Origin: an uncultured Sutterella sp.
GTDB taxonomy: Bacteria; Pseudomonadota; Gammaproteobacteria; Burkholderiales; Burkholderiaceae_F
Reading direction: 5' to 3'
DNA length: 64,000 nt
Assembly: GCA_900770335.1 (NCBI GenBank)
Contig: CAAGKD010000094.1
Span: 33,789 to 97,788 of the forward strand
Both the position numbers and the translations under genes were made by a program. The notes below the pieces were generated by a model that was not told where the DNA came from, made no database searches, and saw nothing but the letters and a program-made list of their open reading frames with translations. Every line of letters starts with the position of its first letter. The stretch's first letter is position 1. Below, in pieces: positions 14,333-48,717 of the stretch.

Positions 14333-15847
14333 TCAGGCCGAGGCGCTCACCGGCGTGACGGCGGGAACCGGGCTTTCGGAGGCCGCGTCCTCGTCGTCGG
14401 GGCGGCGCATCGTGCAGCGGCTGCGCTCCTCGAGGAAACGCTTGTTGTCCGCCGTCGGCAGCAGGGAGCCGGCGACCATGCCGAAGCCCGCGGCGATGAA
14501 GCCGCCGAGAACGTTCGGGAAGACCTCGCCCGCGGCGGTCCAGGTGAGGAACACCCAGACGGCGCTGCCCATGAGGATCGAGACGAAGCAGCCCTGCCGC
14601 GTCGCCTTCCTCCAGTAGAGCCCGCAGACGAGCGGCCAGAACGCACCGACGACGGGGAACTGGTAGGCCATGGCGACCATGTCGTAGATCGGAGCGCCTT
14701 CAAGAGCGATCGAGTAGCAGAGCACCATGACGGCGAAGCAGGCGACCGTGGCGCGCATCGCGAGAAGCATGTGGCGGTCCTCGATGCGGGCAAAGTGGCG
14801 CAGCACGTTCTCGACGAAGATCGTCGACGGGGCGAGCATCGTGGCCGAGGCCGTGGACATCACCGCCGAGAGCACGGCGCCGAAGAAGAGTACGCGCAGC
14901 CACATCGGCATGTAGTCGCGAACGAGCGTCGGCAGGAGTTGCTGAGGATCCTCGGCGAGCATCTTCTGCGCGACCTCGGGCATGACGAGCACGGCGGCGA
15001 CGACGATGAACATCGGCACGAACGCGAAGAGGATGTAGAACGACCCGCCGATGATCGGGCCGGCGACGGCCGTCTGGACGTTCTTGGCGGACATGACGCG
15101 CTGGAAGACGTCCTGCTGCGGGATCGAGCCGATCATCATCGTCATGGCCGACGAGATCCAGAAGAGCCAGCCTGAAGTCGTCTGCTCGGGAAGCGCGTGG
15201 AAGAGGTCCTTGCCGCGGGCGTACTCGACGACGTTGCCGAAGCCCCCGGCGAGGTCCGAGGCGAACCAGAGGATCGCGACAAGGCCGAGCACGATGATGA
15301 TCATCTGCACGAAGTCCGTCACGGCGACCGACCACATGCCGCCGATCATCGTGTAGGCGAGAACGATGCACGCGCCGATCACCATGCCTGCGGTCATGGA
15401 GATCGCGCCCTCGGTGATGAGGTTGATGACGAGGCCGAGAGCCGTCACCTGGGCGCCCACCCAGCCGAGGTACGAAAGGACGATCGCAACCGAGCAGAGC
15501 AGCTCGACGCCCCTGCCGTAGCGGTCGCGGTAGTAGTCGCCGAGCGTGAGGATCTTCTGCTTGTAGAGCTTCTGCGCGAAGAAGGTGCCCACGAGGACAA
15601 GCGCCATGCCCGAGCCGAAGGGCTCCTCGATGACGCCTGCGATGCCGCTTTCGATGAAGCGCCCGGGCAGGCCGAGGATGGTCTCGGAGCCGAACCAGGT
15701 GGCGAAGGTCGCGGTGATGACCATCGGAAGGGGAAGGCTGCGGCCGGCGAGGGCGAAATCGCTCGTGCTCTTGACGCGCGTGGCGGCCCAAACGCCGATT
15801 CCGACGGTGGCGGCAAGATAGAGCAGAACAAAACCAGTCAGCGTCAT
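14333..15847 (-). CDS. Sodium:solute symporter (SSS) family transporter; substrate unknown (PutP/PanF-like)
   Basis: 504 aa with about 13 TM segments. N-terminal SSS signature SDFALAGRSLPLPMVITATFATWFGSETILGLPG. Confidence 0.8.
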   Translation of the reverse strand: MTLTGFVLLYLAATVGIGVWAATRVKSTSDFALAGRSLPLPMVITATFATWFGSETILGLPGRFIESGIAGVIEEPFGSGMALVLVGTFFAQKLYKQKILTLGDYYRDRYGRGVELLCSVAIVLSYLGWVGAQVTALGLVINLITEGAISMTAGMVIGACIVLAYTMIGGMWSVAVTDFVQMIIIVLGLVAILWFASDLAGGFGNVVEYARGKDLFHALPEQTTSGWLFWISSAMTMMIGSIPQQDVFQRVMSAKNVQTAVAGPIIGGSFYILFAFVPMFIVVAAVLVMPEVAQKMLAEDPQQLLPTLVRDYMPMWLRVLFFGAVLSAVMSTASATMLAPSTIFVENVLRHFARIEDRHMLLAMRATVACFAVMVLCYSIALEGAPIYDMVAMAYQFPVVGAFWPLVCGLYWRKATRQGCFVSILMGSAVWVFLTWTAAGEVFPNVLGGFIAAGFGMVAGSLLPTADNKRFLEERSRCTMRRPDDEDAASESPVPAVTPVSASA

Positions 15848-16153
15848 CTCTGTTGTCCTTGTTAAAAACGACGTTGAGCGGAAAAACCGCTTGGAGCAGT
15901 TGTTTGACGGCGCGAATTGTAGGAATCAACGCCCCCGGAGCACCCCCCCGGGGTGAAGTTTTTGCCCCTCGCCCCCCTCAATCGGGCAATGTTTCATCGA
16001 AATCAAGAAAAGCCCCCCTTCCGGGCATTCCCCTTTGTAGGCATGTTCCAAGGAGCCTGCCTCCTCCGGATGAATTATCCATCATCCAACAATTTGATTT
16101 AAAAGATTTTTTATGGATATCCGACGAGGACCGGCTCCCCCTTACCGCAGGCA

Positions 16154-16182
16154 TAAAAAAAGCGCCCGAAGGCGCTTTCTTC
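16154..16182 (-). terminator. Rho-independent terminator after the Tim44-like gene (bidirectional-capable)
   Basis: aaaaaaagcgcccgaaggcgctttctt: a GC stem with a cgaa loop, flanked by an A-run and a T-run. Confidence 0.65.
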
Positions 16183-16236
16183 AACTGGCCGAACGGCCGC
16201 GGATCCTGCGAATCCGGGCCGTCGATTCCGTCAGCT

Positions 16237-17265
16237 TCAGGCGGCCGGACCGTTCTGGCGAATGCCGCAGAGCAGCCACCCGCCCTCGCCCGCCTCGGGC
16301 TTCCTGAGGATCCAGGTCTCGTCGAGCGTCTCGGCCTCTCCGTTGATCTCGAGCTCGCCCTCGAAACGCACGCTCGCGAAGTAGGCGCCGCCCTCGAGCG
16401 CGATGCCGAGGAGCTCGTTCTCAAGGCGCTTGACGACGGTGTGGTAGACCTCGCCCTTGCGCTCGCGCAGCTGGTGCGTGACGGCGGTGAAGAGGTCGTT
16501 GTCAGTGAAGTCGGAGATCTCGATCACGTTGCCCGTGTCCCAGGCCTTCTGAAGCTTGACGTAGTTCTCGCGGGCGGTGCGCAGGAACCCCTCGCGGTCG
16601 AAGTCCGCGGGCGTGACGTCGACCGGCCCCTCCTGGGCCGCTTCGGCGGCCGGCGCCGCGGCGCCGCCCATGAACTGATCCATCACGCTGCCCGAACGAG
16701 CGCCTTGAGCGCCCGCGGCGCCGCTCTGCCGCCAGGAGGGGGCGGCGGACGCCTCGCGTGCGGCGACGGGCTCCTCGGGACGGCTCTGCTCCCTGGACGC
16801 GGCCCAGGGATCGGCCTGGGCGGTCTGCCCGGCCTGGGCGCCTGCGGTCTGCATGCGGCGGCGCGCAAAGTAGCCGAGGAGCACGCTCACGGCGAAGAAC
16901 GCCACGACGGCGAGAAGAAGACCCGTGACCATGCTCGCAATGCCCGACCCGGACAAGCCGAAGAGCGAGAGCAGCGCCGAGATGCCGAGCGCGGCGGCAA
17001 TGCCGCCGAGGATGCTGCGCATCATCGAGGGCTTCTGCACGGGCGCGGGGGCGACGGCGGGCTTGGGCGCGCTCTGCGAGGGCTGCGCCTTGGGCTGGGC
17101 CTGGGGCCGCGGAGCGGCGGCCGGCGCCGCAGGCGCCTTCTGAGAGAACGTCGGGGCGGGACCGCCGAGGTTCATGCCGCCGCCAAAGCGCTTCGCGGCC
17201 TCCGCGTCAACGGAGGCGCATGCGAGCGTGACGCAGACGGCGAGAACGGCGAGGAGATTCTTCAT
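16237..17265 (-). CDS. Tim44-like domain protein, the betaproteobacterial UbiE-associated protein
   Basis: Signal/TM N-terminus, Ala/Pro-rich low-complexity middle, and a C-terminal Tim44-like domain (FDREGFLRTARENYVKLQKAWDTG...). Lies immediately upstream of ubiE, as in Neisseria and Burkholderia. Confidence 0.7.
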   Translation of the reverse strand: MKNLLAVLAVCVTLACASVDAEAAKRFGGGMNLGGPAPTFSQKAPAAPAAAPRPQAQPKAQPSQSAPKPAVAPAPVQKPSMMRSILGGIAAALGISALLSLFGLSGSGIASMVTGLLLAVVAFFAVSVLLGYFARRRMQTAGAQAGQTAQADPWAASREQSRPEEPVAAREASAAPSWRQSGAAGAQGARSGSVMDQFMGGAAAPAAEAAQEGPVDVTPADFDREGFLRTARENYVKLQKAWDTGNVIEISDFTDNDLFTAVTHQLRERKGEVYHTVVKRLENELLGIALEGGAYFASVRFEGELEINGEAETLDETWILRKPEAGEGGWLLCGIRQNGPAA

Positions 17266-18657: not shown

Positions 18658-20688
18658 TCAGGTCTCGAGTGGATCGACCTCCAGGGTCCAGGCAAGCTTC
18701 GAAGGCGCCCGAATCTCCTGCAGGCTTCGGCTCCAGAGCGCAAGGAAGCGATGAAGCGCCCTGCGGTCCGGGCTCTCGACAAGAAGCTGCCCGCGCTCTC
18801 GGTTCATGAGCCGCACGAGCGGCATGGGGACCGGGTCGTAGACGAGCACCTCCGGCGCATTGATCCCGGCTGCGGCTCGCGCGGCCTCCTCGAGGAAGCG
18901 GATCGCGTCCGCAAGGAGGTCCGCCTCGGCGGTGAGAAGCGCCTGGCGCACGAAGGGCACGCACCCGCTCTCGCGACGCTCCTCGAGCGTGTCGTCCGCA
19001 AAGGCCTCGTAGCTCTGGCTCGCGAGCGCCGCGAAGAGCGGCTCCTCGGGAAAGCGCGTCTGGATGAGGACGCGCCCGCGCGGCCCCGCGCGGCCCGCGC
19101 GACCCGCGACCTGCATGAGCGTGTCGAAAAGCCGCTCGCGCGCCCGCATGGAGGGGCTGAGAATCTGCGCGTCGGGATTGAGCACGACGACGAGCCCCAC
19201 CTTCTGGAAGTCATGACCCTTGGCGATCATCTGCGTGCCGACGAGGATGTCGACCTCGCCGCGGTGGACCTTTTCGAAGGCCTCCTCGGCGGCGCGCTTT
19301 CTCGCGGCGCTGTCGCGGTCAACGCGGATCACGCGGCGCCCGGGGAAAAGCGCTGCGATCTCCTCCTCGATGCGCTCCGTTCCCGTCCCCTTCGGGAGAA
19401 TGTCGACGCTCCCGCAGCCCGGACAGACCTCGGGAACGGACCGGCGCCAGCCGCAGTGGTGGCAGATGAGCGCGTTCTCGCGCTTGTGGTACACGGTGAA
19501 GGCCGAGCACCGGACGCACGAGCTCACCCAGCCGCAGGAGGGGCAGGAGAGAACCGGGGAGTAGCCGCGCCGATTGAGAAAGACGAGCGCCTGGCGCCCT
19601 TCGGCGAGGCAGGCCTCGATCGCGGCGCGCGAAGTCTCCGAGATCATCACGCGCGAGCCTCTCGGCGGAGGGGGCGTGAGCTCGACTTCCGGCAGCTGCG
19701 CGTTCGCCTGCGCCCGCTCCCGGAGCTCGAGGAGCCCGTAGGCGCCCTCCTTCGCCCGCTGCCAGCTCTCGAGCGAGGGCGTGGCCGAGCCGAGCACCGC
19801 GGGGCAGCCGATCCTCGAGGCGCGCCAGACGGCGAGATCACGCGCGCTGTAGCGCATGCCGTCGCCCGCCTTGTAGGAGAGATCGTGCTCTTCGTCGACG
19901 AGGATGAGCCGGAGGTTGCGGAAGCTCGCGAAGATCGCCATGCGGGTGCCGACGAGGATGCGTGCGCCGCCCTCGTGGACTGCAAGCCAAGCCGCCGCGC
20001 GCTCACGGTCCGTGAACTCGGAGTTGAGCGCCGCCACGGCCTCGCGCGGAAACCTCGCCCTCACCCGTCCGACGAGCTGCGGCGTCAGATTGATCTCGGG
20101 CACGAGAAGGAGCACCTGCGCGGAGGAATCCGCGGCGAGCGTGCGCTCAATGAGATGCAGGTACACCTCGGTCTTGCCCGACCCCGTGACGCCGAAGAGG
20201 AGCCACGCCCTGAAGCCCGGCTCGGCGAGCACGGCCTCGACGGCCGCCCTCTGCCCGGCGTTGAGCTCCGGCGCGGGCGCCGCCTCGGGCGCCCGCGGGT
20301 CCGCGACGGGCATCGCCGCGCGAATTCCCTCCATGCGTTGCGCCTGGCGCGGCGTCGGCGTCTTCCTCAGGGCCGACGGAATCGTCGGCAGCGCCGCCTC
20401 GCCCCAGCCGCGCGCGTAATAGACGGAGGCGAAGCGCGTGAGCGCGAGCCATTCCGCTGAAAGCGGCCGGGAGACCCTCAGCACCGACGAGAGGCTCCTC
20501 AGGCGCCGCCCCTCGATCCCGGTCGAGGCCGCGAGCTCCGCGATGACGCCGATCACCTTCCGGGGCCCGAGCGGAACGAGCACGAGGTCTCCCGCCGCCG
20601 CGAGCATGTCCTCGGGCACGCGGTAGTCGAGCGGCGGCAGACCCGGCGCATCAACGAGCACCTTCGCAAACTGTTCGGCCTTTTCCAT
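18658..20688 (-). CDS. priA: Primosomal protein N' (replication restart helicase)
   Basis: 676 aa; Walker A GVTGSGKTEVY; DEEH box; Cys-rich zinc-binding region CPSCGWVSSCVRCSAFTVYHKRENALICHHCG. Confidence 0.9.
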   Translation of the reverse strand: MEKAEQFAKVLVDAPGLPPLDYRVPEDMLAAAGDLVLVPLGPRKVIGVIAELAASTGIEGRRLRSLSSVLRVSRPLSAEWLALTRFASVYYARGWGEAALPTIPSALRKTPTPRQAQRMEGIRAAMPVADPRAPEAAPAPELNAGQRAAVEAVLAEPGFRAWLLFGVTGSGKTEVYLHLIERTLAADSSAQVLLLVPEINLTPQLVGRVRARFPREAVAALNSEFTDRERAAAWLAVHEGGARILVGTRMAIFASFRNLRLILVDEEHDLSYKAGDGMRYSARDLAVWRASRIGCPAVLGSATPSLESWQRAKEGAYGLLELRERAQANAQLPEVELTPPPPRGSRVMISETSRAAIEACLAEGRQALVFLNRRGYSPVLSCPSCGWVSSCVRCSAFTVYHKRENALICHHCGWRRSVPEVCPGCGSVDILPKGTGTERIEEEIAALFPGRRVIRVDRDSAARKRAAEEAFEKVHRGEVDILVGTQMIAKGHDFQKVGLVVVLNPDAQILSPSMRARERLFDTLMQVAGRAGRAGPRGRVLIQTRFPEEPLFAALASQSYEAFADDTLEERRESGCVPFVRQALLTAEADLLADAIRFLEEAARAAAGINAPEVLVYDPVPMPLVRLMNRERGQLLVESPDRRALHRFLALWSRSLQEIRAPSKLAWTLEVDPLET

Positions 20689-20803: not shown

Positions 20804-20824
20804 TGTGGATAACTTTGTGGATTC
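20804..20824. promoter_or_regulatory. DnaA-box pair in the hemE-priA intergenic region, upstream of priA
   Basis: TGTGGATAA (a perfect reverse complement of TTATCCACA) at 20804-20812, and TGTGGATTC at 20816-20824 in the same orientation. Confidence 0.45.
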
Positions 20825-21017
20825 TTTCGCTCTCCCGGCCCGAGCCCGCCGGACCGCCCTCCGAAACGTTCTGAAATCAGTAATCGCTCATCTTAACTTC
20901 CCTACTGCCGCAATGGAAGACAAGAAACGCGGGACCCGCCGATCATGGCGAATCCCGCGTTCCGATTCCGTCGCCTCCTCAGGGGAAGCTGTGAATAAGT
21001 CCGGCAGGGAAAAACGC

Positions 21018-22091
21018 TCAAGCCGCGTGGAAGCGGCGGCTGTAGCTGTGGACCTCGTCAACGAGGATCCGGACGTTCTCCACCGGCGTGAACTGGTTGA
21101 TGCCGTGGCCGAGATTGAAGACGTGGCCGCCCGTCCCGACGGGACCGTAGGCATCCATCACCTTCCTCGCCTCGCGGCGGATCGTCTCCTCGTCGCCGAA
21201 GAGCGCGAGCGGGTCCATGTTGCCCTGCAGGGCGACGCGGTCGCCGACGACCTTCCTCGCGCGGGCGAGGTTCGTCGTCCAGTCAAGGCCGAGCGCGTCG
21301 CAGCCGCTCTGCGCGCACTCGGCGATCCACTCGCCGCCGCCCTTCGTGAAGACGATGGCGGGAACCCTGCGGCCCTCGGAGACGCGCGTGAGCCGGTCGA
21401 TGACCTTCTTCGTGGCCGCGAGCGAGAAGCGCTGGAAGTCGCCGTCGGCGAGCATGCCGCCCCAGGTGTCGAAGATCTGCACGGCCTGAGCGCCCGCCGC
21501 GATCTGCGCGTTGAGGTAGTCCGCAACCGCCTGCGCGTTGATGTCAAGGATCCGCTCGAAGAGGTCCGGACGGCGGAACATCATCGTCTTGGCGGTCCGG
21601 AAGTCCCGGCTGCCGCGGCCCTCGACCATGTAACAGGCGAGCGTGAAGGGCGAGCCCGAAAAGCCGATGAGCGGAACGCGGTTGTTGAGCGCGCGGCGGA
21701 TGCTGCGCACGGCGGCCGTGACGTAGCCGAGCTTGTCCTCGGGATCGGGGACGAAGAGGCGGTTCACCGCCTCCTCGTCCTGCACGGGATGCGCAAAGAC
21801 GGGGCCCTCGCCCTGAACGAAGGAGAGGCCGAGCCCCATGGCGTCCGGAACGGTGAGGATGTCCGAGAAGAGGATCGCCGCGTCGATGCCGTAGCGGTCG
21901 ATCGGCTGGAGCGTCACCTCCGTCGCGTAGTCCGGATTCTGAGCGAGGTTCATGAAGCTGCCGGCCTTCGCGCGGGTGTTGCAGTACTCGGGCAGATAGC
22001 GCCCTGCCTGACGCATGAGCCAAACCGGCGTGAAGTCGGTGTGTTCGCGCAGGAGCGCACGCAGGAAGCAGTCATTGTCAGGAGTCGTCAT
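21018..22091 (-). CDS. hemE: Uroporphyrinogen decarboxylase
   Basis: N-terminal [28 protein letters not shown] signature; 357 aa. Confidence 0.95.
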
Positions 22092-32874: not shown

Positions 32875-33510
32875 TCAGTTGTCGTCGCGAAGGACGATGA
32901 GATGGCGCCTCTCGGCGAGGCCCGGGACGGTCATGGGCTCAATGCGCTCGACGGCGACGCCCGCGGGGAGCGCCGCGATCTCATCGTCCGGGATGACGCC
33001 CTTCATCGCGAGCCAGCGCCCGCCCGGAGCGAGCAGGGGGCGCGTGAGGGCGGTGAAGTCCGCGAGCGAGGCGAATGCCCGGCTCGTGATGAGCTCCCAC
33101 GCGCCCTTGAGCCTCTCGACGCGGCCGTGGACGGCGTGGAGATTTCTCAGGCTGAGCTCGATCGCCGCCTGATTGACGAAAGCGGCCTTCTTGCCGACGG
33201 CGTCGATGCCGGTCACCTGAAGGTCCGGGCGCAGAATTGCGATCGGCACGCTCGGGAGCCCTCCGCCGCAGCCGACGTCCAGGATGCGCGTTGCGTCCGC
33301 ATCGATGCGAGGCACGAGCGCGGCGGAATCCAGAAGATGGTGCGTGAGCACCTCCTCGGGCCGCCGGATGGCCGTGAGGTTGTAGACGCGGTTCCATTTG
33401 AGAAGGAGCTCCGCGTAGCCCGCGAAGGCGTCGAGCGCGCTCTCGTCGGAGCGCACGCCGAGGGCGGAGAGCCCTTCGGCCAGGGTCTTTCGGTCAATGA
33501 TGTCGTTCAT
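32875..33510 (-). CDS. rsmG: 16S rRNA (guanine527-N7)-methyltransferase
   Basis: SAM-binding motif ILDVGCGGGLP; 211 aa; immediately downstream of mnmG. Confidence 0.9.
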   Translation of the reverse strand: MNDIIDRKTLAEGLSALGVRSDESALDAFAGYAELLLKWNRVYNLTAIRRPEEVLTHHLLDSAALVPRIDADATRILDVGCGGGLPSVPIAILRPDLQVTGIDAVGKKAAFVNQAAIELSLRNLHAVHGRVERLKGAWELITSRAFASLADFTALTRPLLAPGGRWLAMKGVIPDDEIAALPAGVAVERIEPMTVPGLAERRHLIVLRDDN

Positions 33511-37318: not shown

Positions 37319-39013
37319 TCACTTCTGCCTGGCGAGACGCTCGGCGCGCTCGGCGGCGATCGTCTTGTTGATCCACCACTGCTGGGCGATCGAGAGGACG
37401 TTGTTCGTGAGCCAGTAGAGCACGAGGCCGGCGGCGAACACGAAGAACATCACGGAGAACACCAGCGGCATGATGTACATGACCTTGGCCTGGGTCGGAT
37501 CGGTGGGCTTGGGGTTGAGCAGGATCTGCAGGAACATCGTCACGGCCATCAGGATCGGCAGGACGAACCAGGGATCGGGCATGGCAAGGTCATGCACCCA
37601 GAGGAGCCAGTCCGCGCCGCGCAGCTCGACGGAGCCCTGAAGCACCCAGTAGAGGGCGAGGAACACCGGAATCTGCAGGAAGATCGGCAGGCACCCGCCG
37701 ACCGGGTTGATCTTCTCGTTGCGGTAGAGCTCCATCATCGCCTGATTGAGACGCTGCTTGTCATCCTTGTACTTCTCCTGAAGCGCCTTCATGCGCGGCG
37801 TGACCTCCTTCATCCTCGCCATCGAGCGGTAGCCCGCGGCGGAGATCGGGTAGAGGACGGCCTTCACGAGGCAGGTGAGCAGGACGATGGCCCAGCCCCA
37901 GTTCCCGACAATGCCGTAGAGGAACGACAGCAGCCAGTAGATGGGCTTGGCGAGGAACGTGAGCCAGCCGTAGTCGACGACGAGCTCCAGGCCCGGAGCG
38001 AGCTGCTCAAGGCGGTTCTGCTCCTGCGGGCCGGAGTAGAAGACCGCGCGGTCAGTCTCCTCGGCGCCCGGAGCGAGGGACTTCATCGAAACGATCGTTC
38101 CGACGGAGTACAGATCCTTGGAGACCTCGCGGGCGTAGTTCTGGCGGCTCTCGCCCTGGGCGGGGATCCAAGCGCTCACGAAGTGGTGCTGGATCATCGC
38201 GAGCCAGCCGTTGTCCGTGTGCTCGACGTAGGAGGCGTCCTTCTTGCGGATGTCCGAGAAGTCAAGCTTCTGGAAGTTCTCCTCGCTCGTGTAGAACGCC
38301 GGGCCGGTGAAGGTCGAGTACATCGAGCTCTCGCCGGCGGGCTTGGAGGAGTCGCGCGTGATCTGGTAGTAGATCTGCGGCGTGACGGACTCGCCCGAGA
38401 CGTTCTTCACGGTCGTGGCGACCTCGATGCCGTAGTTGCCGCGCTTGAAGGAGTAGGTCTTGGTGACCTTGACGCCGCCCTTCTCAGCCTCGAAGACGAC
38501 CTCAAGGTCGTCGGCGCCGTCCATGCTGAGCTTCTGGCTCACGAGGCGGAATTCGTCGGCGTGCGTCGGCCAGGCGCCGCCCACGAGGCCGCTCTGAGCG
38601 ACGTAGGTGTGCTCGCCCGCGACGTCGAGCAGCTTCACGTTGCCGAGGTCGTCGGCGGGCTTGCGGCCGAGGATCATGCCGGCGAGGCCGACCTCCGTCC
38701 AGTCCGCCTGCTGCGGGAAGAGAAGCATCTCGGTGCCGACGATGCGGGCGCCCTGCAGGTCAAAGGTAACCTTGAGGCGGTCGGTCGTCACAACCACGGG
38801 CTCCCGGGCGGGAGCGGCGGCCATGACGGGAGCCTCCTGCTTCGCGGCGGCGGCCGGAATGTCCGCGACGCCGCTCTCATTCTGAACGACGGCCTGCTCG
38901 GCTCCGCCGAAGAAGGACTTTCCACCCTTGTAGACCTGATAGTTGTCCCAAAGCATGAAAAGCGAGCCGAAAAGAATCACCCACAGAAGGGCGCGCTGAA
39001 CTTCTCTTCCCAT
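37319..39013 (-). CDS. yidC: Membrane protein insertase
   Basis: 564 aa with a large periplasmic domain and C-terminal TM bundle; positively charged tail ...ERLARQK. Confidence 0.9.
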   Translation of the reverse strand: MGREVQRALLWVILFGSLFMLWDNYQVYKGGKSFFGGAEQAVVQNESGVADIPAAAAKQEAPVMAAAPAREPVVVTTDRLKVTFDLQGARIVGTEMLLFPQQADWTEVGLAGMILGRKPADDLGNVKLLDVAGEHTYVAQSGLVGGAWPTHADEFRLVSQKLSMDGADDLEVVFEAEKGGVKVTKTYSFKRGNYGIEVATTVKNVSGESVTPQIYYQITRDSSKPAGESSMYSTFTGPAFYTSEENFQKLDFSDIRKKDASYVEHTDNGWLAMIQHHFVSAWIPAQGESRQNYAREVSKDLYSVGTIVSMKSLAPGAEETDRAVFYSGPQEQNRLEQLAPGLELVVDYGWLTFLAKPIYWLLSFLYGIVGNWGWAIVLLTCLVKAVLYPISAAGYRSMARMKEVTPRMKALQEKYKDDKQRLNQAMMELYRNEKINPVGGCLPIFLQIPVFLALYWVLQGSVELRGADWLLWVHDLAMPDPWFVLPILMAVTMFLQILLNPKPTDPTQAKVMYIMPLVFSVMFFVFAAGLVLYWLTNNVLSIAQQWWINKTIAAERAERLARQK

Positions 39014-39037: not shown

Positions 39038-39367
39038 TTAGAAATTGTGGAAGAGGGACCGTCCGCCGTTGCCGCGGCGCTCCCCGTCATCACGATCCTG
39101 AGCCCTGTCGTCCGGACACCCTCCGCAGAGGCACCGCCAGCCGAAGCGCGCAGGAACGGGATCATAACCTCTGCCGCCGAACGGATGGCACCGCAATATG
39201 CGACCGAGTGCGAGCAGACTTCCGCGGATCGCTCCGTGTCGCTCGACCGCCTCCATGGCGTACTGCGAGCAGGTGGGCAGATAGCGGCATTCGCGCCCGA
39301 CCCAGGGAGAGAGCGTGAGCTGATAGAGCCGGATGAGCCCCTTGAGCGCCGCCGTCGCGAGACTCAT
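39038..39367 (-). CDS. yidD: Membrane protein insertion efficiency factor
   Basis: [54 protein letters not shown]. Confidence 0.85.
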
Positions 39368-39825
39368 GAGGCGGTCCCGCCTTCGCGGGCGCGCCGACGG
39401 CGGCCGGCCCGGCGAATCGTCTCGCGCATGAGCGCGCAGGCGTCCTCGTGAAGGGTCTTCTTCAATGCGCTTCTTGACTGCGCTTCGAGCGAGCGAAGCG
39501 CGACCTTGAGGCGAAGGGAGACGTCAAGCCCGGCGTCCGGACCGATCTGCTCGCGCAGCTCCGCAAGCGCCTGCCTCGCGGCCTCCCTCAGGGCGCGCTT
39601 GACGATCGCGCGGTCGACGGAAAGCGGCGAATTGCGCTTTCCGACCGTGATTCCCACGCGCACGCGGCCCTTCTCCGCATTCTCTAGGCATCCGGCGCTG
39701 AAGCATGCAGAATGAACGCGGAACGAATTGTCGCCCCGCGTTCTCAATATGACCCCGAAGTCCTCCGTCCTGATGAGGCGGCTCGTTCGGGGAAAGCCGA
39801 ATTTCTTCGTCTGCCTGTCGGACAC
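39364..39825 (-). CDS. rnpA: Ribonuclease P protein component
   Basis: [18 protein letters not shown]... RNR-like motif region; overlaps the yidD start by 4 bp. Confidence 0.85.
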
Positions 39826-39998: not shown

Positions 39999-40205
39999 GA
40001 TTGTTTCCTTTGTCTCGAGGGAGAAGCCTGCGGGGAGAGGGCTCTCATCCCTGCGGCAATGAAGAATCCAGAGAAGCGGCGCATCCGGCCGCTCTGACGC
40101 ATTCCTCTTGGTCTCCAACGCCCCCCTGAAGGGAGCCGGACTGGAGGAAGCCTAGAAAAGTTCGCTATTACACATCAATCGGCTGACCTTGTCAATCGAC
40201 AGGCC

Positions 40206-40498
40206 TGTGGAAAATTTCGATTTCCCTCAGGTTCTTCGCGAGCCTGGGACGGCTCCCGAAACGCATGGGCTTGTTGCGTCACCCGCCGCACCACAACATA
40301 TAGCGTTCTTACTTGAGGAAAACACTCCTCTTGGTATCCCGCCGCCGAATGAAAGCGGATGCTCTCCTATCTTGCCTAGCGGCAGTGGCGATCCAATTGA
40401 GCCTCCCCCGACGGACCCTCGTCCGGCGCCGCGAAGACCTCCTCCATTGTGGATAACTTTTTCACTTATAATTCAATGAAATACGGAGTTGTCCACAC
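40206..40498. promoter_or_regulatory. DnaA boxes in the rpmH-dnaA intergenic region (dnaA promoter, possibly oriC-associated)
   Basis: TGTGGAAAA at 40206-40214, TGTGGATAA (perfect) at 40448-40456, and TTGTCCACA at 40490-40498. Confidence 0.55.
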
Positions 40499-40616
40499 GG
40501 AACGCACGCCTTCCGCGCTTCCCCACGCAGGGTTTGAAGCTACAATCAAAGGTTCCGCCGACCGAAACGCTCCTGATATATCGGCCATTTCCTTCGTCAA
40601 TCCTCCGCTTCCCGCT

Positions 40617-41984
40617 ATGCAAGAATTCTGGCAACAGTGCCTGGACAGCCTCAAGAAGCTCGTCCAGAGCGCGCCCAAGATCTACGACACCTGGTTCAAG
40701 GTGATCAGCCCGGTTTTCTGGGATCCGGAGACGGGCGTCCTGACGCTTGAGGCCCCGGCCTCGAAGGTCCGCTTCATCCGGAGCGCGTACCTGAAGAACA
40801 TTCAGACGATCGCCACGCATGTGAACGCAGGAAAGGCCGTCACAGTTTCTCTCGTCCCGGCCAAGGGGCAGGGGACGGATCCCTCCGCCGAGCCCGGCCC
40901 CGGACCGGCGGTCCCCGCGGACCAGAGGCGGCGCGAGGAGACGGGGCTTCTCCCCGGCCTCACTTTCGAGAACTACGTCAACGGCAACGCCAACCAGCTT
41001 GCCGTCGCCGCCGCCGAGCACGTAGCCACGACGACGGGCACGCAGTACAACCCTCTTTACATCTACGGCGGCGTCGGCCTCGGCAAGACGCACCTCATGC
41101 AGGCGATCGGCCACCGCTATCTTGACCTGCACCCCAAGGCGCGCGTCCGATGCGTCTCCGCGCAGGACTTCATCAACGAGTACACGGCCGCCGTTCGCGA
41201 ATCGGCGAACAAGTCGCACGCAAGCCTCGAAAAGTTCGACGAGCGCTACCGCAACCTCGACCTCCTGCTCATCGACGACGTGCAGTCGCTCTCGGGCGCC
41301 AAGGGCTCGCAGGGACAGTTCTTCCGCGCGTTCGAGGCGCTCGTGCCGCACAACAAGCAGCTCGTCATCACGTCGGACACCTACACGCGCGGCCTCAAGG
41401 ACATCGAACCGCGCCTGATCTCGCGCCTCTCACAGGGCCTCTCGGTCGCGATCGAGCCGCCTGAGTTCGAGATGCGCACGGCCATTCTGCTCAACAAGGC
41501 CAAGGCGATGGGCGTGGATCTGCCCGACGAGGTCGCGGCCTTCATCGCCAAGCGTCTCAAGAGCAATGTCCGCGAGCTCGAGGGAGCGCTCCAGCAGGTC
41601 GTCGCCTACCAGCAGTTCCAGCCCGCCGCCTCCCGCGAGATCACGATCGACATCGCCAAGCGCGTGCTCAGGGACCAGTTCCAGGTCGTCAACAGCCTGA
41701 TCACGATCGAGAGCATCCAGAAGACGGTCGCCGACTACTACAAGATCAAGGTAGCCGACATGCACTCCAAGCGCCGCCCGGCGCACATCGCGCTGCCGCG
41801 TCAGATCGCCATGTACCTCACCAAGGAGCTCACGCAGCACAGCCTGCCCGAGATCGGAGAGAACTTCGGCGGACGCGACCACACGACCGTGATGCATGCG
41901 GTTCGTAAAATTACGCAGGAACGCCAGAGCAACGCCGAGCTCAATCATGAGATTCACGTTCTCGAGCAGATGATCCGGGGCTGA
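40617..41984 (+). CDS. dnaA: Chromosomal replication initiator protein
   Basis: N-terminus MQEFWQQCLDSLKK; AAA+ Walker A GGVGLGKTHL; C-terminal DNA-binding helix with DHTTVMHA. The ATG at 40617 is chosen over the upstream extension. Confidence 0.95.
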   Translation: MQEFWQQCLDSLKKLVQSAPKIYDTWFKVISPVFWDPETGVLTLEAPASKVRFIRSAYLKNIQTIATHVNAGKAVTVSLVPAKGQGTDPSAEPGPGPAVPADQRRREETGLLPGLTFENYVNGNANQLAVAAAEHVATTTGTQYNPLYIYGGVGLGKTHLMQAIGHRYLDLHPKARVRCVSAQDFINEYTAAVRESANKSHASLEKFDERYRNLDLLLIDDVQSLSGAKGSQGQFFRAFEALVPHNKQLVITSDTYTRGLKDIEPRLISRLSQGLSVAIEPPEFEMRTAILLNKAKAMGVDLPDEVAAFIAKRLKSNVRELEGALQQVVAYQQFQPAASREITIDIAKRVLRDQFQVVNSLITIESIQKTVADYYKIKVADMHSKRRPAHIALPRQIAMYLTKELTQHSLPEIGENFGGRDHTTVMHAVRKITQERQSNAELNHEIHVLEQMIRG

Positions 41985-42025: not shown

Positions 42026-45791
<3,766 letters not shown>

Positions 45792-45858
45792 TTGCGTTCA
45801 CATCATGCGGGGCGTCCGGGACTCACCGGACGCCCCTTCAATTTTTGGGGAGCCCGTC

Positions 45859-46791
45859 ATGACCAATCCCTCCGAACAGCTTGTCGTCGCAGTCTCCTCG
45901 CGCGCGCTCTTTGATCTCGAGAGCGAGCACCGGCTCTTCGAGGAGCAGGGATACGAAGCCTTTCGGGAGCATCAGGAGCTGAACCGCGACAAGCCGCTGC
46001 GCCCCGGCGTCGCCTTTCCCTTCGTGCGGCGTCTCCTGGGCCTGAACCGGCTTTTCCCCGGCAGGGAGCCCTTCCGCGTTGTCGCGCTCTCGCGCAACTC
46101 GCCTGAGACCGCCTGCCGGTTCTTCAGCTCCTGCCGTCATCACCGTCTTCCCGTCAACGCCGGCGCCTTCACGTCCGGCCAGTCGACCTTCCCCTACATC
46201 TCCGCCTTCGGCGTGTCGCTCTTTCTCTCCGCAAATCCGGAGAGCGTGACAAGCGCGATCGAGGCGGGACTGCCCGGCGGCCTCGTCCTGTCCGGAGCAG
46301 GCGCGGGCGACGATGATGTGGATCCGACGCTGCGCATCGCTTTTGACTTCGACGGCGTGCTCGCGGACGATGAGTCCGAAAGGTGCTTTCAGAAGGAGGG
46401 ACTCGCCGCCTTCGAGCGCCTCGAGACGGAGAAGGCCTCGACGCCCCACGAGCCCGGCCCCCTGCGCGACCTCTTCGCGAAGCTCTCCTTCTTCCAGCGG
46501 CTTGACCGGGAGGAACGCGGCAAAGGGAATCCCTACTTTAAGCCGGCCATCCGGATCTCCATCGTGACCTCCCGGGGCGCGACAAGCGAGGAGCGGCTCA
46601 TCACCACGTTGAGAAGCTTCGGCATGAGCGCGGCAGAACTCTTTCTCATGGACGGCCTCGACAAGCGGAGCGTCCTTGAGACCCTTCGCCCCCACATCTT
46701 CTTCGACGACCAGCTCAGGCACCTTGAACGCACCCAGGGCTCCATACCGAGCGTTCTCATCCCATTCGGAATCCATAACACTCCAAATTGA
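45859..46791 (+). CDS. 5'-nucleotidase-family (HAD-like) protein
   Basis: MTNPSEQLVVAVSSRALFDLESEHRLFEEQGYEAFREHQ... and HAD motif IAFDFDGVLADDESE. Start taken at the ATG after the gyrB stop. Confidence 0.65.
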   Translation: MTNPSEQLVVAVSSRALFDLESEHRLFEEQGYEAFREHQELNRDKPLRPGVAFPFVRRLLGLNRLFPGREPFRVVALSRNSPETACRFFSSCRHHRLPVNAGAFTSGQSTFPYISAFGVSLFLSANPESVTSAIEAGLPGGLVLSGAGAGDDDVDPTLRIAFDFDGVLADDESERCFQKEGLAAFERLETEKASTPHEPGPLRDLFAKLSFFQRLDREERGKGNPYFKPAIRISIVTSRGATSEERLITTLRSFGMSAAELFLMDGLDKRSVLETLRPHIFFDDQLRHLERTQGSIPSVLIPFGIHNTPN

Positions 46792-47202
46792 CGATTTATC
46801 CAAAAATATCAATGAATTCACGCTATTCTATGCACAGGAAACCCACGATCAATCCACTGGTTATGCACAGGCAATCCACAGGCTGAGAGAGGGGTTTTTC
46901 CTTCCAAGAAACTTTTCCCTGTTCAATAACTCTTTTTTATTCTTAAATAGCAGTAGTTTGTAGTAGGTGAGTGCAATTTCTGTGGACAACCAGCTTTCTC
47001 CCATATAAATCTGTAAGATGCGATGTTGAACATCCTGTGGATATGTGGCGTGGCAATCTGTGGAGAACGCGGGAGAGGATGGGGATGAAATCAGGCCTTT
47101 TCGGGCGACCCCGCAAGTTGTCCACATTTCGTGCACAGCAACACTAAAGTTGCTCACAGCACTTATGCACAAACCTAACAGCATTTTTGTTGTCATCCTT
47201 TC
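46792..47202. promoter_or_regulatory. Dense DnaA-box cluster with an AT-rich tract; candidate oriC or DnaA-titration/regulatory locus
   Basis: At least nine 9-mers within one or two mismatches of TTATNCACA, including: TTATCCAAA 46796-804; CTATGCACA 46828-836; TTATGCACA 46861-869; CAATCCACA 46872-880; TGTGGACAA 46981-989; TGTGGATAT 47037-045; TGTGGAGAA 47059-067; TTGTCCACA 47118-126; TTATGCACA 47163-171. AT-rich stretch aataactcttttttattcttaaatagcagtagtttgtagtagg at about 46925-46968. Confidence 0.6.
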
Positions 47203-48009
47203 ATGTCTTCCGCAGTTCCCTTTCTGCCGTGGTTTGCGCCGAAGCTCTCCCGCGCGATGCGCGGCGTTCTGAGCAACATCGGCCACAAGGCCGTCTTTTC
47301 GCGCGGCGAGCGGATCTATGAGTCCCCGGGGTTCTTTCACAAGCTCATGCTCGTCGAGCGCGGCATCGTCGCCAAGGCGCTGATGGATCCCTTCCACGCG
47401 GATCCGCTTCTGCTGGCCCTCTCCGGACCGGGAGCGCTCTGCGGCAGCTACGAGACGCTTTATCTGCAGGATCGGATGGAGCGCAGCCACTGGTGCATGA
47501 CGAGCACCTCGGTGATCATCGTCAACGCGGATCTGCTGCTGCGCATCTGCGATCAGAACCCCGTGTGGCAACGCGAGCTCACGCACTACTGCTCCGTGAG
47601 CGCGATCAGCGACCGCCTGGGGCTGCTCGTCGTGCACTCAGCCTCCGCCGAGGAGCGACTGGGCATGTTCCTCATAGCCTCGTCCGCCGTCGTCTGCGAG
47701 GACTTCCTCGAGCGGTTGCTCAATCCGAACGTGCAGTGGGTCGTCATGGAGGCCCTGCCGTCCATGAGGGTGGTAACGAGCGCGCTCAGCATGACGCCTG
47801 CCGAGGTGAGAGGCGTTCTTCACGTCTGGGCCGCCGAGGATGTCATCCGCCGCCGTCCGCACAAGGTGCTGCTTTCGCGCAGGCGCTTCGTTCAGTACTG
47901 GAGCCGCATGGAGCCGATTCTCAGCACCGCCGGGGCGAAGGGCGCGGAGAGCGCGCGCCGGTCCGTGATGCCCGTGCGCGACTGCCCTTTCCCGGATCCC
48001 ATGTTCTAA
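47203..48009 (+). CDS. Crp/Fnr-family transcriptional regulator (cNMP-binding-like domain plus C-terminal HTH)
   Basis: Beta-roll region KAVFSRGERIYESPGFFHKLMLVERGIVAKAL...SGPGALCGSYETL, and C-terminal HTH ALSMTPAEVRGVLHVWAAEDVIRR resembling the Crp DNA-binding helix. Confidence 0.6.
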   Translation: MSSAVPFLPWFAPKLSRAMRGVLSNIGHKAVFSRGERIYESPGFFHKLMLVERGIVAKALMDPFHADPLLLALSGPGALCGSYETLYLQDRMERSHWCMTSTSVIIVNADLLLRICDQNPVWQRELTHYCSVSAISDRLGLLVVHSASAEERLGMFLIASSAVVCEDFLERLLNPNVQWVVMEALPSMRVVTSALSMTPAEVRGVLHVWAAEDVIRRRPHKVLLSRRRFVQYWSRMEPILSTAGAKGAESARRSVMPVRDCPFPDPMF

Positions 48010-48057
48010 ACTCCTTGAATGAACTTGCCTCATTCAAAGACCGCCGGATTCAGATCC

Positions 48058-48717
48058 ATGCAGCACAACACCATCAGAAAGTTCTCTCTTCTCGCCTCCG
48101 CCACCGCGTGCGCGGCTATGCTCTCCGGATGCATCGCACCGATCCTGATGGGCGGCGCCGTGATGACGACCGCCACCGTGGCGACGGACCGCCGGACGGC
48201 CGGCTCCATCGTGAGTGACGAAGTGGTGGAGAAGCGCCTCTCCTATGAGATCGAGCAGGCGCTCAAGGATCAGAAGCAGCACATCACGGTGACGGCCTAC
48301 GACGGCCGCGTGCTGCTCTCGGGCGAGGCGGGGAGCGCCGATCTGCGCGCCCGCGCCGAGCAGATCGCCAGAAACAGCACCGACGTGCGCGAAGTGATCG
48401 ACGAGATCGCCGTCATGGAGCCCGTCTCGGTCTCGCAGCGCCTCTCCGACTCGCTTCTTGCAACGCGCGTGCGCACGGCGATCATCGGCGAGAAGGATGC
48501 GACGCTCAATCAGATGAAGGTCGTCGTTGAGCGCGGCGTCGTCTATCTGATGGGCTTCGTCACCGACTCTGAGGCTCGGGCCGCCGCAGCCAAGGCCGCG
48601 GCGGTCTCCGGCGTGAAGCAGGTCGTCATGTGCTTCAGCATCGCCACGGCCGAGGAGATCGAGCAGCGGATGCGCACCGACAAGCCGGCGAACGCCGGCG
48701 CGCAGTCCGGCGACTGA
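48058..48717 (+). CDS. BON-domain lipoprotein (DolP/YraP/OsmY-like)
   Basis: Lipobox MLSGC; two BON-like repeats (VTAYDGRVLLSGEAGSADLRARAEQIA... / VVVERGVVYLMGFVTDSEARAAAAKAA). Confidence 0.75.
   Translation: MQHNTIRKFSLLASATACAAMLSGCIAPILMGGAVMTTATVATDRRTAGSIVSDEVVEKRLSYEIEQALKDQKQHITVTAYDGRVLLSGEAGSADLRARAEQIARNSTDVREVIDEIAVMEPVSVSQRLSDSLLATRVRTAIIGEKDATLNQMKVVVERGVVYLMGFVTDSEARAAAAKAAAVSGVKQVVMCFSIATAEEIEQRMRTDKPANAGAQSGD

Follow-up and report, generated by a model that had tools for sequence, protein, structure and literature searches.

A conserved DnaA-box cluster downstream of gyrB and nt5 as the probable chromosomal replication origin of a Sutterella-like betaproteobacterium

Introduction

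Where chromosome replication begins in a Sutterella-like betaproteobacterium is the question raised by a 64-kb stretch of its DNA, referred to here as the window, in which two groups of DnaA boxes lie on either side of the dnaA operon. One group is found in the spacer between rpmH and dnaA. The other occupies the 411-bp intergenic gap at 46792-47202, between a gene for a PF06189 5'-nucleotidase (nt5), which ends at 46791, and an open reading frame (ORF) that begins at 47203; the region fills the whole gap and is called the post-nt5 region. A first-pass annotation of the window proposed that the true replication origin (oriC) could be displaced to this place, which lies about 6.5 kb from the dnaA start. 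This remains the best-supported reading, owing to conservation across the family, the order of elements in the region, and the GC skew of relatives.

The post-nt5 region is, in our judgement, probably the chromosomal oriC, a conclusion that draws on its sequence and on that of its relatives. The evidence consists of box enrichment, the least stable duplex of the window, conserved synteny and a conserved footprint, an unwinding module, the skew of relatives, gene orientation, and the motifs of DnaA. Most likely it would be a DnaA-dependent oriC of the ordinary kind that occupies a family-specific position, and not a new kind of system.

The DnaA-box cluster

DnaA boxes were scored by the number of mismatches to the consensus TTATCCACA. 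With at most one mismatch, there are 13 sites in the window, and 7 of them lie inside 46796-47171; others are located in the rpmH-dnaA spacer (three) and near 20.8-21.0 kb (two). When two mismatches are allowed, the number in 46792-47202 becomes ten, among them TTATGCACA twice (46861 and 47163), CTATGCACA (46828), and TTGTCCACA twice (46981 on the minus strand and 47118 on the plus strand). The counts bear out the earlier statement that at least nine box-like 9-mers are clustered here, and the inventory of these three variants given with it is correct in motif and copy number.

To control for chance, the 411-bp region itself was shuffled 5000 times with its dinucleotides preserved, which takes its low G+C content (44%) into account. 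On average the shuffled sequences contain 0.14 sites that differ from the consensus by at most one mismatch (maximum 3), and 7 sites are reached in 0 of 5000. Any other 411-bp frame of the window has at most 3 such sites, the 3 being those of the rpmH-dnaA spacer. The DnaA encoded in the window conserves the domain IV motifs PRQ and GGRDHTTV in an alignment to B. subtilis DnaA (8btg) and, as read from this alignment, shares its recognition motif with the B. subtilis protein.

The AT-rich tract and the unwinding module

An AT-rich tract adjoins the boxes, as the first-pass annotation had described. The G+C content of 46906-46950 is 24%, the second-lowest of any 45-mer in the window. By nearest-neighbour free energy, no 80-bp duplex of the window is less stable than 46901-46980 (z = 4.8). 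An equivalent tract is present at the same place in most of the relatives that were mapped.

The core of the region has the following order: AT tract, DnaA-trio-like repeats (trios) of the form TAG/TAA, a spacer of 13-14 nt, a box of the form TGTGGAnAA, two more boxes in the same orientation, and then boxes in the opposite orientation. From the AT tract through the TA(G/A) repeats and the 13-14 nt spacer to TGTGGAnAA, this order recurs across the family. The trio 5'-TAG-3' equals the consensus 3'-GAT-5', and comparison with the B. subtilis entry in the PMC8287927 supplement served as a check of its orientation.

Under a strict rule for a basal unwinding system (BUS), there must be at least three consecutive in-frame NAN trios that are correctly oriented, lie at most 16 nt from a box with no more than two mismatches, and are followed by AT-rich DNA. 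By this rule, uninterrupted arrays are present in the equivalent region of nine relatives. Five of them (L002, L004, L005, L008, and L011) have a spacer of 13 nt, the commonest trio-box distance in PMC8287927, and four (L006, L013, L015, and L021) have another spacer at the best match. The window and L001 have a spacer of 14 nt. A conserved TTTG splits the trio array of the window into 4 + 2, and this interrupted element has a conservation of about 85% across 9 species. In L002, L007, L013, and L015, two boxes 3 nt apart adjoin the trios, with a good box at the position of the degenerate TGAGTGCAA of the window; these pairs resemble the Bordetella entry in the PMC8287927 table. The same scan applied to the rpmH-dnaA spacers returned matches at chance level only.

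Conservation across Sutterellaceae

An nt5 scan of species-representative genomes identifies Sutterellaceae (Burkholderiales) as the closest relatives of the window, whose source is a high-GC relative of Sutterella. The best match is Sutterella wadsworthensis, with identities of 69% for nt5, 85% for DnaA, and 87% for GyrB. The order yidC-rnpA-dnaA-dnaN-gyrB-nt5-[intergenic]-(47203 homologue)-BON, in which BON denotes a BON-domain lipoprotein gene, is kept in 16 Sutterellaceae loci. Sites with at most one mismatch in the post-nt5 region number 7 in the window, 15 in L002, 12 in L008, 9 in L011, and 16 in L015, and they usually form the largest cluster.

Seven closer metagenomic relatives, retrieved via the 47203 protein, have the same layout, and their intergenic regions align well with that of the window. 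Over 9 aligned species, the boxes at 46981, 47036, 47059, 47118, about 47150, and 47163 and the trios have conservation values of 0.79-0.95. When all box and trio columns are taken together, the value is 0.70 versus 0.52 for the remaining columns (Mann-Whitney p = 7e-9).

In the window, boxes flank the AT tract to the left (46796-46880, plus strand) and to the right (46981-47171), and the same layout is seen in L081, L083, L088, L003, L008, L011, and others. L004, L005, L006, and L021 lack the left-hand boxes, and those of S. wadsworthensis are weak; as judged from this distribution, the left-hand boxes appear to be accessory. The last three units of the left array are kept in the sub-clade of the window (L081, L083, L087, and L088) and not in S. 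wadsworthensis.

In two relatives the entire core (AT tract, trios, and boxes) is present as two tandem copies, at 11900-12728 in L015 and at 11810-12606 in L002. The periods are about 436 bp and 403 bp, respectively, and each copy can be aligned to the single module of the window.

In loci with inserted or inverted genes (L007, L010, and L013), the cluster is still located 5' of BON or of the 47203 homologue. L013 illustrates this (15549-16826): BON is inverted and 4.4 kb away from nt5, and the box cluster and trio module (16398-16808) have moved along with it. Such a constant position, and the presence of the boxes at 47118-47171 within 90 nt of a start codon, would also suit boxes that are transcriptional operators only, through which DnaA would act on BON and on the gene at 47203, which encodes a protein of CRP/FNR fold. 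The origin would then lie elsewhere, as has been suggested for Cupriavidus metallidurans, whose skew switch maps about 90 kb away from dnaA (PMC2864759). We regard this as very improbable, given that at least ten boxes with an AT tract and a trio array are more than an operator needs, that the cluster persists where the CRP/FNR-fold gene is absent (L003-L006, L008, L011, and L021), that the skew minima of relatives mostly coincide with the cluster, and that the flanking genes are a typical origin-proximal set.

Gene orientation and strand asymmetry

To the left of dnaA, the minus strand carries yidC (37319-39013) and rnpA (39364-39825), both assigned by Pfam, and rpmH, whose end at 39999 was read from the sequence. 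Further left, mnmE, gidA, parA, and parB are found by Pfam, all on the minus strand; the ORFs at about 23.3-30 kb are read as the atp operon and 32875-33510 as gidB from their size and order, with no Pfam basis. The plus strand carries, in the order given by Pfam, dnaA (ATG at 40617), dnaN (42026-43147), gyrB (43233-45791), and then nt5. To the right of the post-nt5 region are the 47203 ORF and the BON gene (48019-48717). The flanking genes are the classical origin-proximal set. About 30 successive genes from 3 to 40 kb, including atp, parAB, gidAB, mnmE, and yidC, are on the minus strand; therefore, the origin is expected to the right of that run.

The skew of the window itself cannot place the origin because a C-rich coding strand dominates it: almost every gene of the window, whichever its strand, has more C than G at third codon positions (third-position GC skew, GC3 skew, about -0.2), which masks the skew due to replication. 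It is the relatives of lower GC content that are informative. In 11 of 11 relatives, segment GC skew has negative values left of dnaA and positive ones on the right-hand side of the post-nt5 region. The dnaA-nt5 block has a negative skew in 9 of these, a skew of about zero in one (L008), and a slightly positive one in another (L010), despite its plus-strand genes. Of 14 relatives, 8 have their local minimum of cumulative skew at most 150 bp from the post-nt5 region, and another 3 have it no more than about 500 bp away. The minimum of L013 (16826) has relocated together with the cluster and BON.

The coding-strand GC skew at four-fold sites, taken over 13 genomes, has a mean of -0.21 for dnaA, dnaN, gyrB, and nt5, in comparison with which yidC (-0.055, p = 0.002) and BON (-0.009, p = 0.008) differ; the value for the dnaA-nt5 genes resembles that of the lagging-strand PBP5 gene. 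For dnaA-dnaN-gyrB of E. coli, which lie on the leading strand, this skew is +0.10 to +0.22. The negative skew of the dnaA-nt5 genes is thus not intrinsic to these genes. Sites for FtsK-orienting polar sequences (KOPS, GGGNAGGG) in the window are too few and not polar, and the window contains no match to the parS consensus within 3 mismatches.

Several observations weigh against an origin in the post-nt5 region. It puts dnaA, dnaN, and gyrB head-on to replication, and minus-strand genes are numerous on its right side as well. The cumulative GC skew of the window has its global minimum at 3.8 kb and only a local one at 47-48 kb, and a gene-wise GC3-skew switch model, although best at 47 kb, reduces the residuals from 169.5 to 158.7, which is not meaningful. 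Among the relatives, the local skew minimum lies elsewhere in 3 of 14 (L006, L010, and L011), and the genomes in the skew comparisons are related and hence not independent. Gene-specific codon effects are sizeable, as E. coli yidC has a four-fold skew of +0.25 though it is on the lagging strand. Finally, the trio element of the window fails the strict BUS rule, having 2 in-frame trios at 14 nt, then a 4-nt break, and then 4 more.

The rpmH-dnaA spacer

The start of dnaA is the ATG at 40617, where the DnaA N-terminal domain and the alignments of homologues begin, and not the GTG at 40449 of the ORF list, which sits inside a perfect DnaA box. The rpmH-dnaA spacer (40000-40616) is therefore 617 bp long. 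It contains three boxes with at most one mismatch, one of them perfect, against 0.06 expected by shuffling. The first-pass annotation rightly counted three boxes only; its remark that no comparable AT-rich tract is present does not stand, since 40446-40490 has a G+C content of 27% and, though shorter, is as unstable as the post-nt5 tract at the 30-bp scale.

These properties would fit an origin located in the spacer, with the post-nt5 cluster being a titrating locus similar to datA or a reactivating locus similar to DARS. Such a placement would keep dnaA-dnaN-gyrB co-directional with replication, and it agrees with the local skew minimum of L010, which is in the spacer, and with the 4 spacer boxes of S. 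wadsworthensis. The geometry, however, is that of a promoter: the two best boxes, 40448 and 40489, diverge from a short AT-rich segment between them that contains TATAAT, and there is no trio module. An unwinding module would not have boxes that face away from the AT segment, an arrangement that is usual for dnaA promoters autoregulated by DnaA. The number of spacer boxes in relatives is 0-4 and in most of them 0-1, with none of at most one mismatch in L008 and L014, and an alignment of the spacer across the family reveals no conserved architecture save a short element near rpmH. Moreover, the skew of relatives puts the dnaA block on the left replichore. A titration site would need no conserved AT tract with a trio array; a site of the datA type has no unwinding element and lies away from the skew switch, whereas in the post-nt5 region AT tract and trios are conserved and the switch of relatives mostly maps here. 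An origin in the spacer is thus unlikely, and we infer that the spacer boxes serve as a dnaA promoter and autoregulation site, not as an unwinding site.

Since two significant box clusters flank the dnaA operon, it is also conceivable that they act jointly or alternately, either as a bipartite origin looped round dnaA-dnaN-gyrB-nt5 or as dual origins like the reported oriC1/oriC2 of P. aeruginosa. B. subtilis and H. pylori have bipartite origins that flank dnaA, and dual origins with a separation of about 5 kb have been reported in P. aeruginosa and predicted in Halomonadaceae. The probability of this arrangement is as low as that of an origin in the spacer. The clusters are 6.3 kb apart with four genes between them, in contrast to the dnaA-sized gap of known bipartite origins. 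In a bipartite oriC, both clusters, with dnaA between them, would be conserved and required; here the upstream cluster is not alignable and not conserved (none in L008 and L014, one box in most others), and the unwinding module is found in the downstream region only.

Likeness to known origins

One of the known systems closest to the post-nt5 region is the BUS of B. subtilis incC, which comprises DnaA-boxes 6/7, DnaA-trios, and an AT-rich 27-mer; similar systems are predicted across DoriC (PMC8287927, PMC6669920). The B. subtilis BUS is written 3'-AATAGGTGT-TTAGGTGT-TCGG-GATGATAATGAAGATGAT-5' in the PMC8287927 supplement, so that the trio strand, read 5' to 3', has AT-rich DNA, TAG repeats, a spacer, and TGTGGATAA. 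Order and orientation are identical in the window, and the orientation also equals that of the betaproteobacterial entries derived from DoriC in the same supplement. Unlike in B. subtilis, the trios of the window and its closest relatives are broken by TTTG, the box adjacent to the trios is degenerate (4 mismatches), and the locus is not between dnaA and dnaN.

The polarity of E. coli oriC is also the same: its DNA-unwinding element (DUE) is followed after 12 nt by TGTGGATAA (R1), with TTATCCACA (R4) at the far end. Box 46981 of the window has the R1 orientation relative to the DUE, and the DUE-to-box gap in the two systems is 12-14 nt. E. coli oriC contains arrays of low-affinity sites at 2-bp spacing, which the 11-bp-phased weak sites of the window recall. 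In contrast to E. coli oriC, the post-nt5 region has no GATC clusters and no exact IHF consensus, whose only match in the window is at 16087-16099 on the minus strand, and it has extra boxes beyond the DUE. The flanks differ as well, being nt5 and the CRP/FNR-fold gene in the window and gidA and mioC in E. coli.

The window and many relatives share, by sequence, boxes that face inward from either side of the AT tract. This is the feature of the 'bilateral' origin class defined in PMC13643167, where T. tengcongensis is the sole experimentally validated example named.

Within Burkholderiales, predicted origins are upstream of dnaA in Ralstonia, uncertain in B. cenocepacia, and at about 1.65 kb, which is probably the dnaA-dnaN gap, in Polaromonas and Herminiimonas (PMC8287927 supplement; PMC2864759; PMC4948915). 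These predicted oriCs have the same box consensus and the same dependence on DnaA as that of the window. A literature search found no origin of Sutterellaceae and none placed after gyrB and a PF06189 nt5; DoriC, which was outside this search, may list automatic predictions. Calling the position non-canonical, as was done at first, is thus justified in that a site after gyrB and nt5 was not found described, but the departure is modest as origin positions in Burkholderiales already vary.

Proposed mechanism

DnaA binding, the site of unwinding, and origin function are all inferred from sequence, and initiation could proceed as follows. To the right of the AT tract, DnaA would fill six conserved boxes, of which three are in the R1 orientation (46981, 47036, and 47059) and three of the R4 type (47118, 47150, and 47163). 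Starting from the box closest to the AT tract, a DnaA-ATP filament would extend across the TAG repeats (46945-46966) and open the AT/T-rich tract (about 46895-46950), where the helicase would be loaded. The extra inward-facing array of the sub-clade (46828-46880) would give a bilateral layout and probably aid unwinding or the loading of the second helicase. Forks would depart both ways, the leftward one passing head-on through nt5-gyrB-dnaN-dnaA and then running co-directionally with the minus-strand genes (yidC, mnmE, gidAB, parAB, and atp). The three boxes of the rpmH-dnaA spacer would autoregulate dnaA.

A more specific proposal, which is tentative and less likely to be right than wrong, is that the origin of Sutterellaceae is functionally bilateral, with convergent arrays flanking the DUE, and lies after gyrB with dnaA-dnaN-gyrB head-on, the module being duplicated in L002 and L015. 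The bilateral layout and the tandem-duplicated modules of these two relatives are the most interesting leads. If the bilateral reading is true, the family would provide a natural proteobacterial test case for bilateral and multi-module architectures, for which the only basis to date is a single thermophile and engineered E. coli constructs. The natural and well-conserved series of layouts, with or without far-side boxes and with one or two modules, could be used to test models of DnaA-trio unwinding and helicase loading. More generally, the post-nt5 region would place the replication origin of a common and little-studied gut betaproteobacterial family, a position useful for growth-rate estimates from metagenomic coverage (peak-to-trough ratios), for genome start conventions, and for replicating vectors.

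Element map

The elements of the post-nt5 region and the boxes of the rpmH-dnaA spacer are listed in Table 1.

Table 1. Sequence elements of the post-nt5 region and box group of the rpmH-dnaA spacer, in window coordinates.
Element	Coordinates	Strand	Conservation or basis
DnaA box TTATCCAAA, 1 mismatch, outermost left	46796..46804	+	0.57 (moderate)
Left array, five head-to-tail 9-mers in exact 11-bp phasing, facing the AT tract	46828..46880	+	sequence reading
Left array units in order: CTATGCACA, AAACCCACG, CAATCCACT, TTATGCACA, CAATCCACA			mismatches 2, 4, 3, 1, 2
G-rich 14-nt spacer GGCTGAGAGAGGGG from left array to AT tract	46881..46894	.	
T-rich/AT-rich tract, candidate DUE	46895..46944	.	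G+C content and duplex stability
DnaA-trio-like repeats AAA TAG CAG TAG tttg TAG TAG, with 4-nt interruption	46945..46966	+	0.85
14-nt spacer containing degenerate box TGAGTGCAA (46968-46976, 4 mismatches)	46967..46980	.	
Box nearest AT tract, TTGTCCACA (+ strand: TGTGGACAA)	46981..46989	-	0.89
DnaA box ATATCCACA (+ strand: TGTGGATAT)	47036..47044	-	0.83
DnaA box TTCTCCACA (+ strand: TGTGGAGAA)	47059..47067	-	0.84
Weak box TCATCCCCA, 2 mismatches	47080..47088	-	0.70
DnaA box TTGTCCACA, best conserved element, first of the opposite-orientation (R4-type) group	47118..47126	+	0.95
Box-like TTGCTCACA, 3 mismatches; in relatives TTGTTCACA	47150..47158	+	about 0.79
DnaA box TTATGCACA, 32 nt 5' of the ATG of the CRP/FNR-fold gene	47163..47171	+	0.83
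5-6-5 palindrome ACAGC-ATTTTT-GTTGT, 10 nt upstream of the 47203 ATG	47178..47193	.	
rpmH-dnaA spacer box group: 40206 (-), 40448 (-, perfect), 40489 (+)	40206..40497	.	

The arms of the palindrome co-vary, being ACAGC/GCTGT in L001 and ACAAC/GTTGT in L083. It probably belongs to the flanking gene, as a candidate 5' hairpin or auto-operator, and not to the origin proper. A scan of the post-nt5 region for promoter and terminator consensus sequences gave matches at chance level.

Neighbouring genes and other sites of the window

The protein encoded at 47203-48009 has no significant match in Pfam, NCBIfam, or PDB sequence searches, and one homologue with 63% identity is named Crp/Fnr by NCBI. Its AlphaFold model (15 homologues; predicted local distance difference test score, pLDDT, 86) matches CRP/FNR-family structures in Foldseek with a probability of 1.0 and TM-scores of about 0.6-0.7, the matches including GlxR, M. 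tuberculosis CRP, FNR, and NtcA. The Crp/Fnr label of the first-pass annotation is accordingly upheld at the level of the fold and not by Pfam or PDB sequence matches.

The nt5 ORF, at 365 aa, has a 98-nt overlap with the end of gyrB (45694-45850). Its homologues are called at 310-314 aa and its Pfam match begins at residue 59, so the ORF is probably over-extended. An Rfam scan of the window found one tRNA only.

The intergenic DNA between hemE (21018-22091) and priA (18658-20688), both on the minus strand, contains a tandem box pair, TGTGGATAA-ctt-TGTGGATTC, at 20804-20824. One of the two boxes is perfect, their spacing is 3 nt, and a third box is located at 20990-20998; 0.03 are expected by shuffling. 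Origins linked to hemE occur in alphaproteobacteria, and by this analogy the site was considered as an alternative origin. It was rejected as the DNA on either side is GC-rich and lacks an AT tract and trios, and no switch of gene orientation is found there. These boxes may serve in titration or mark a priA promoter under the control of DnaA.

The most AT-rich 45-mer of the window (20% G+C) lies at 16070-16120, between two minus-strand genes, and holds the sole IHF match.

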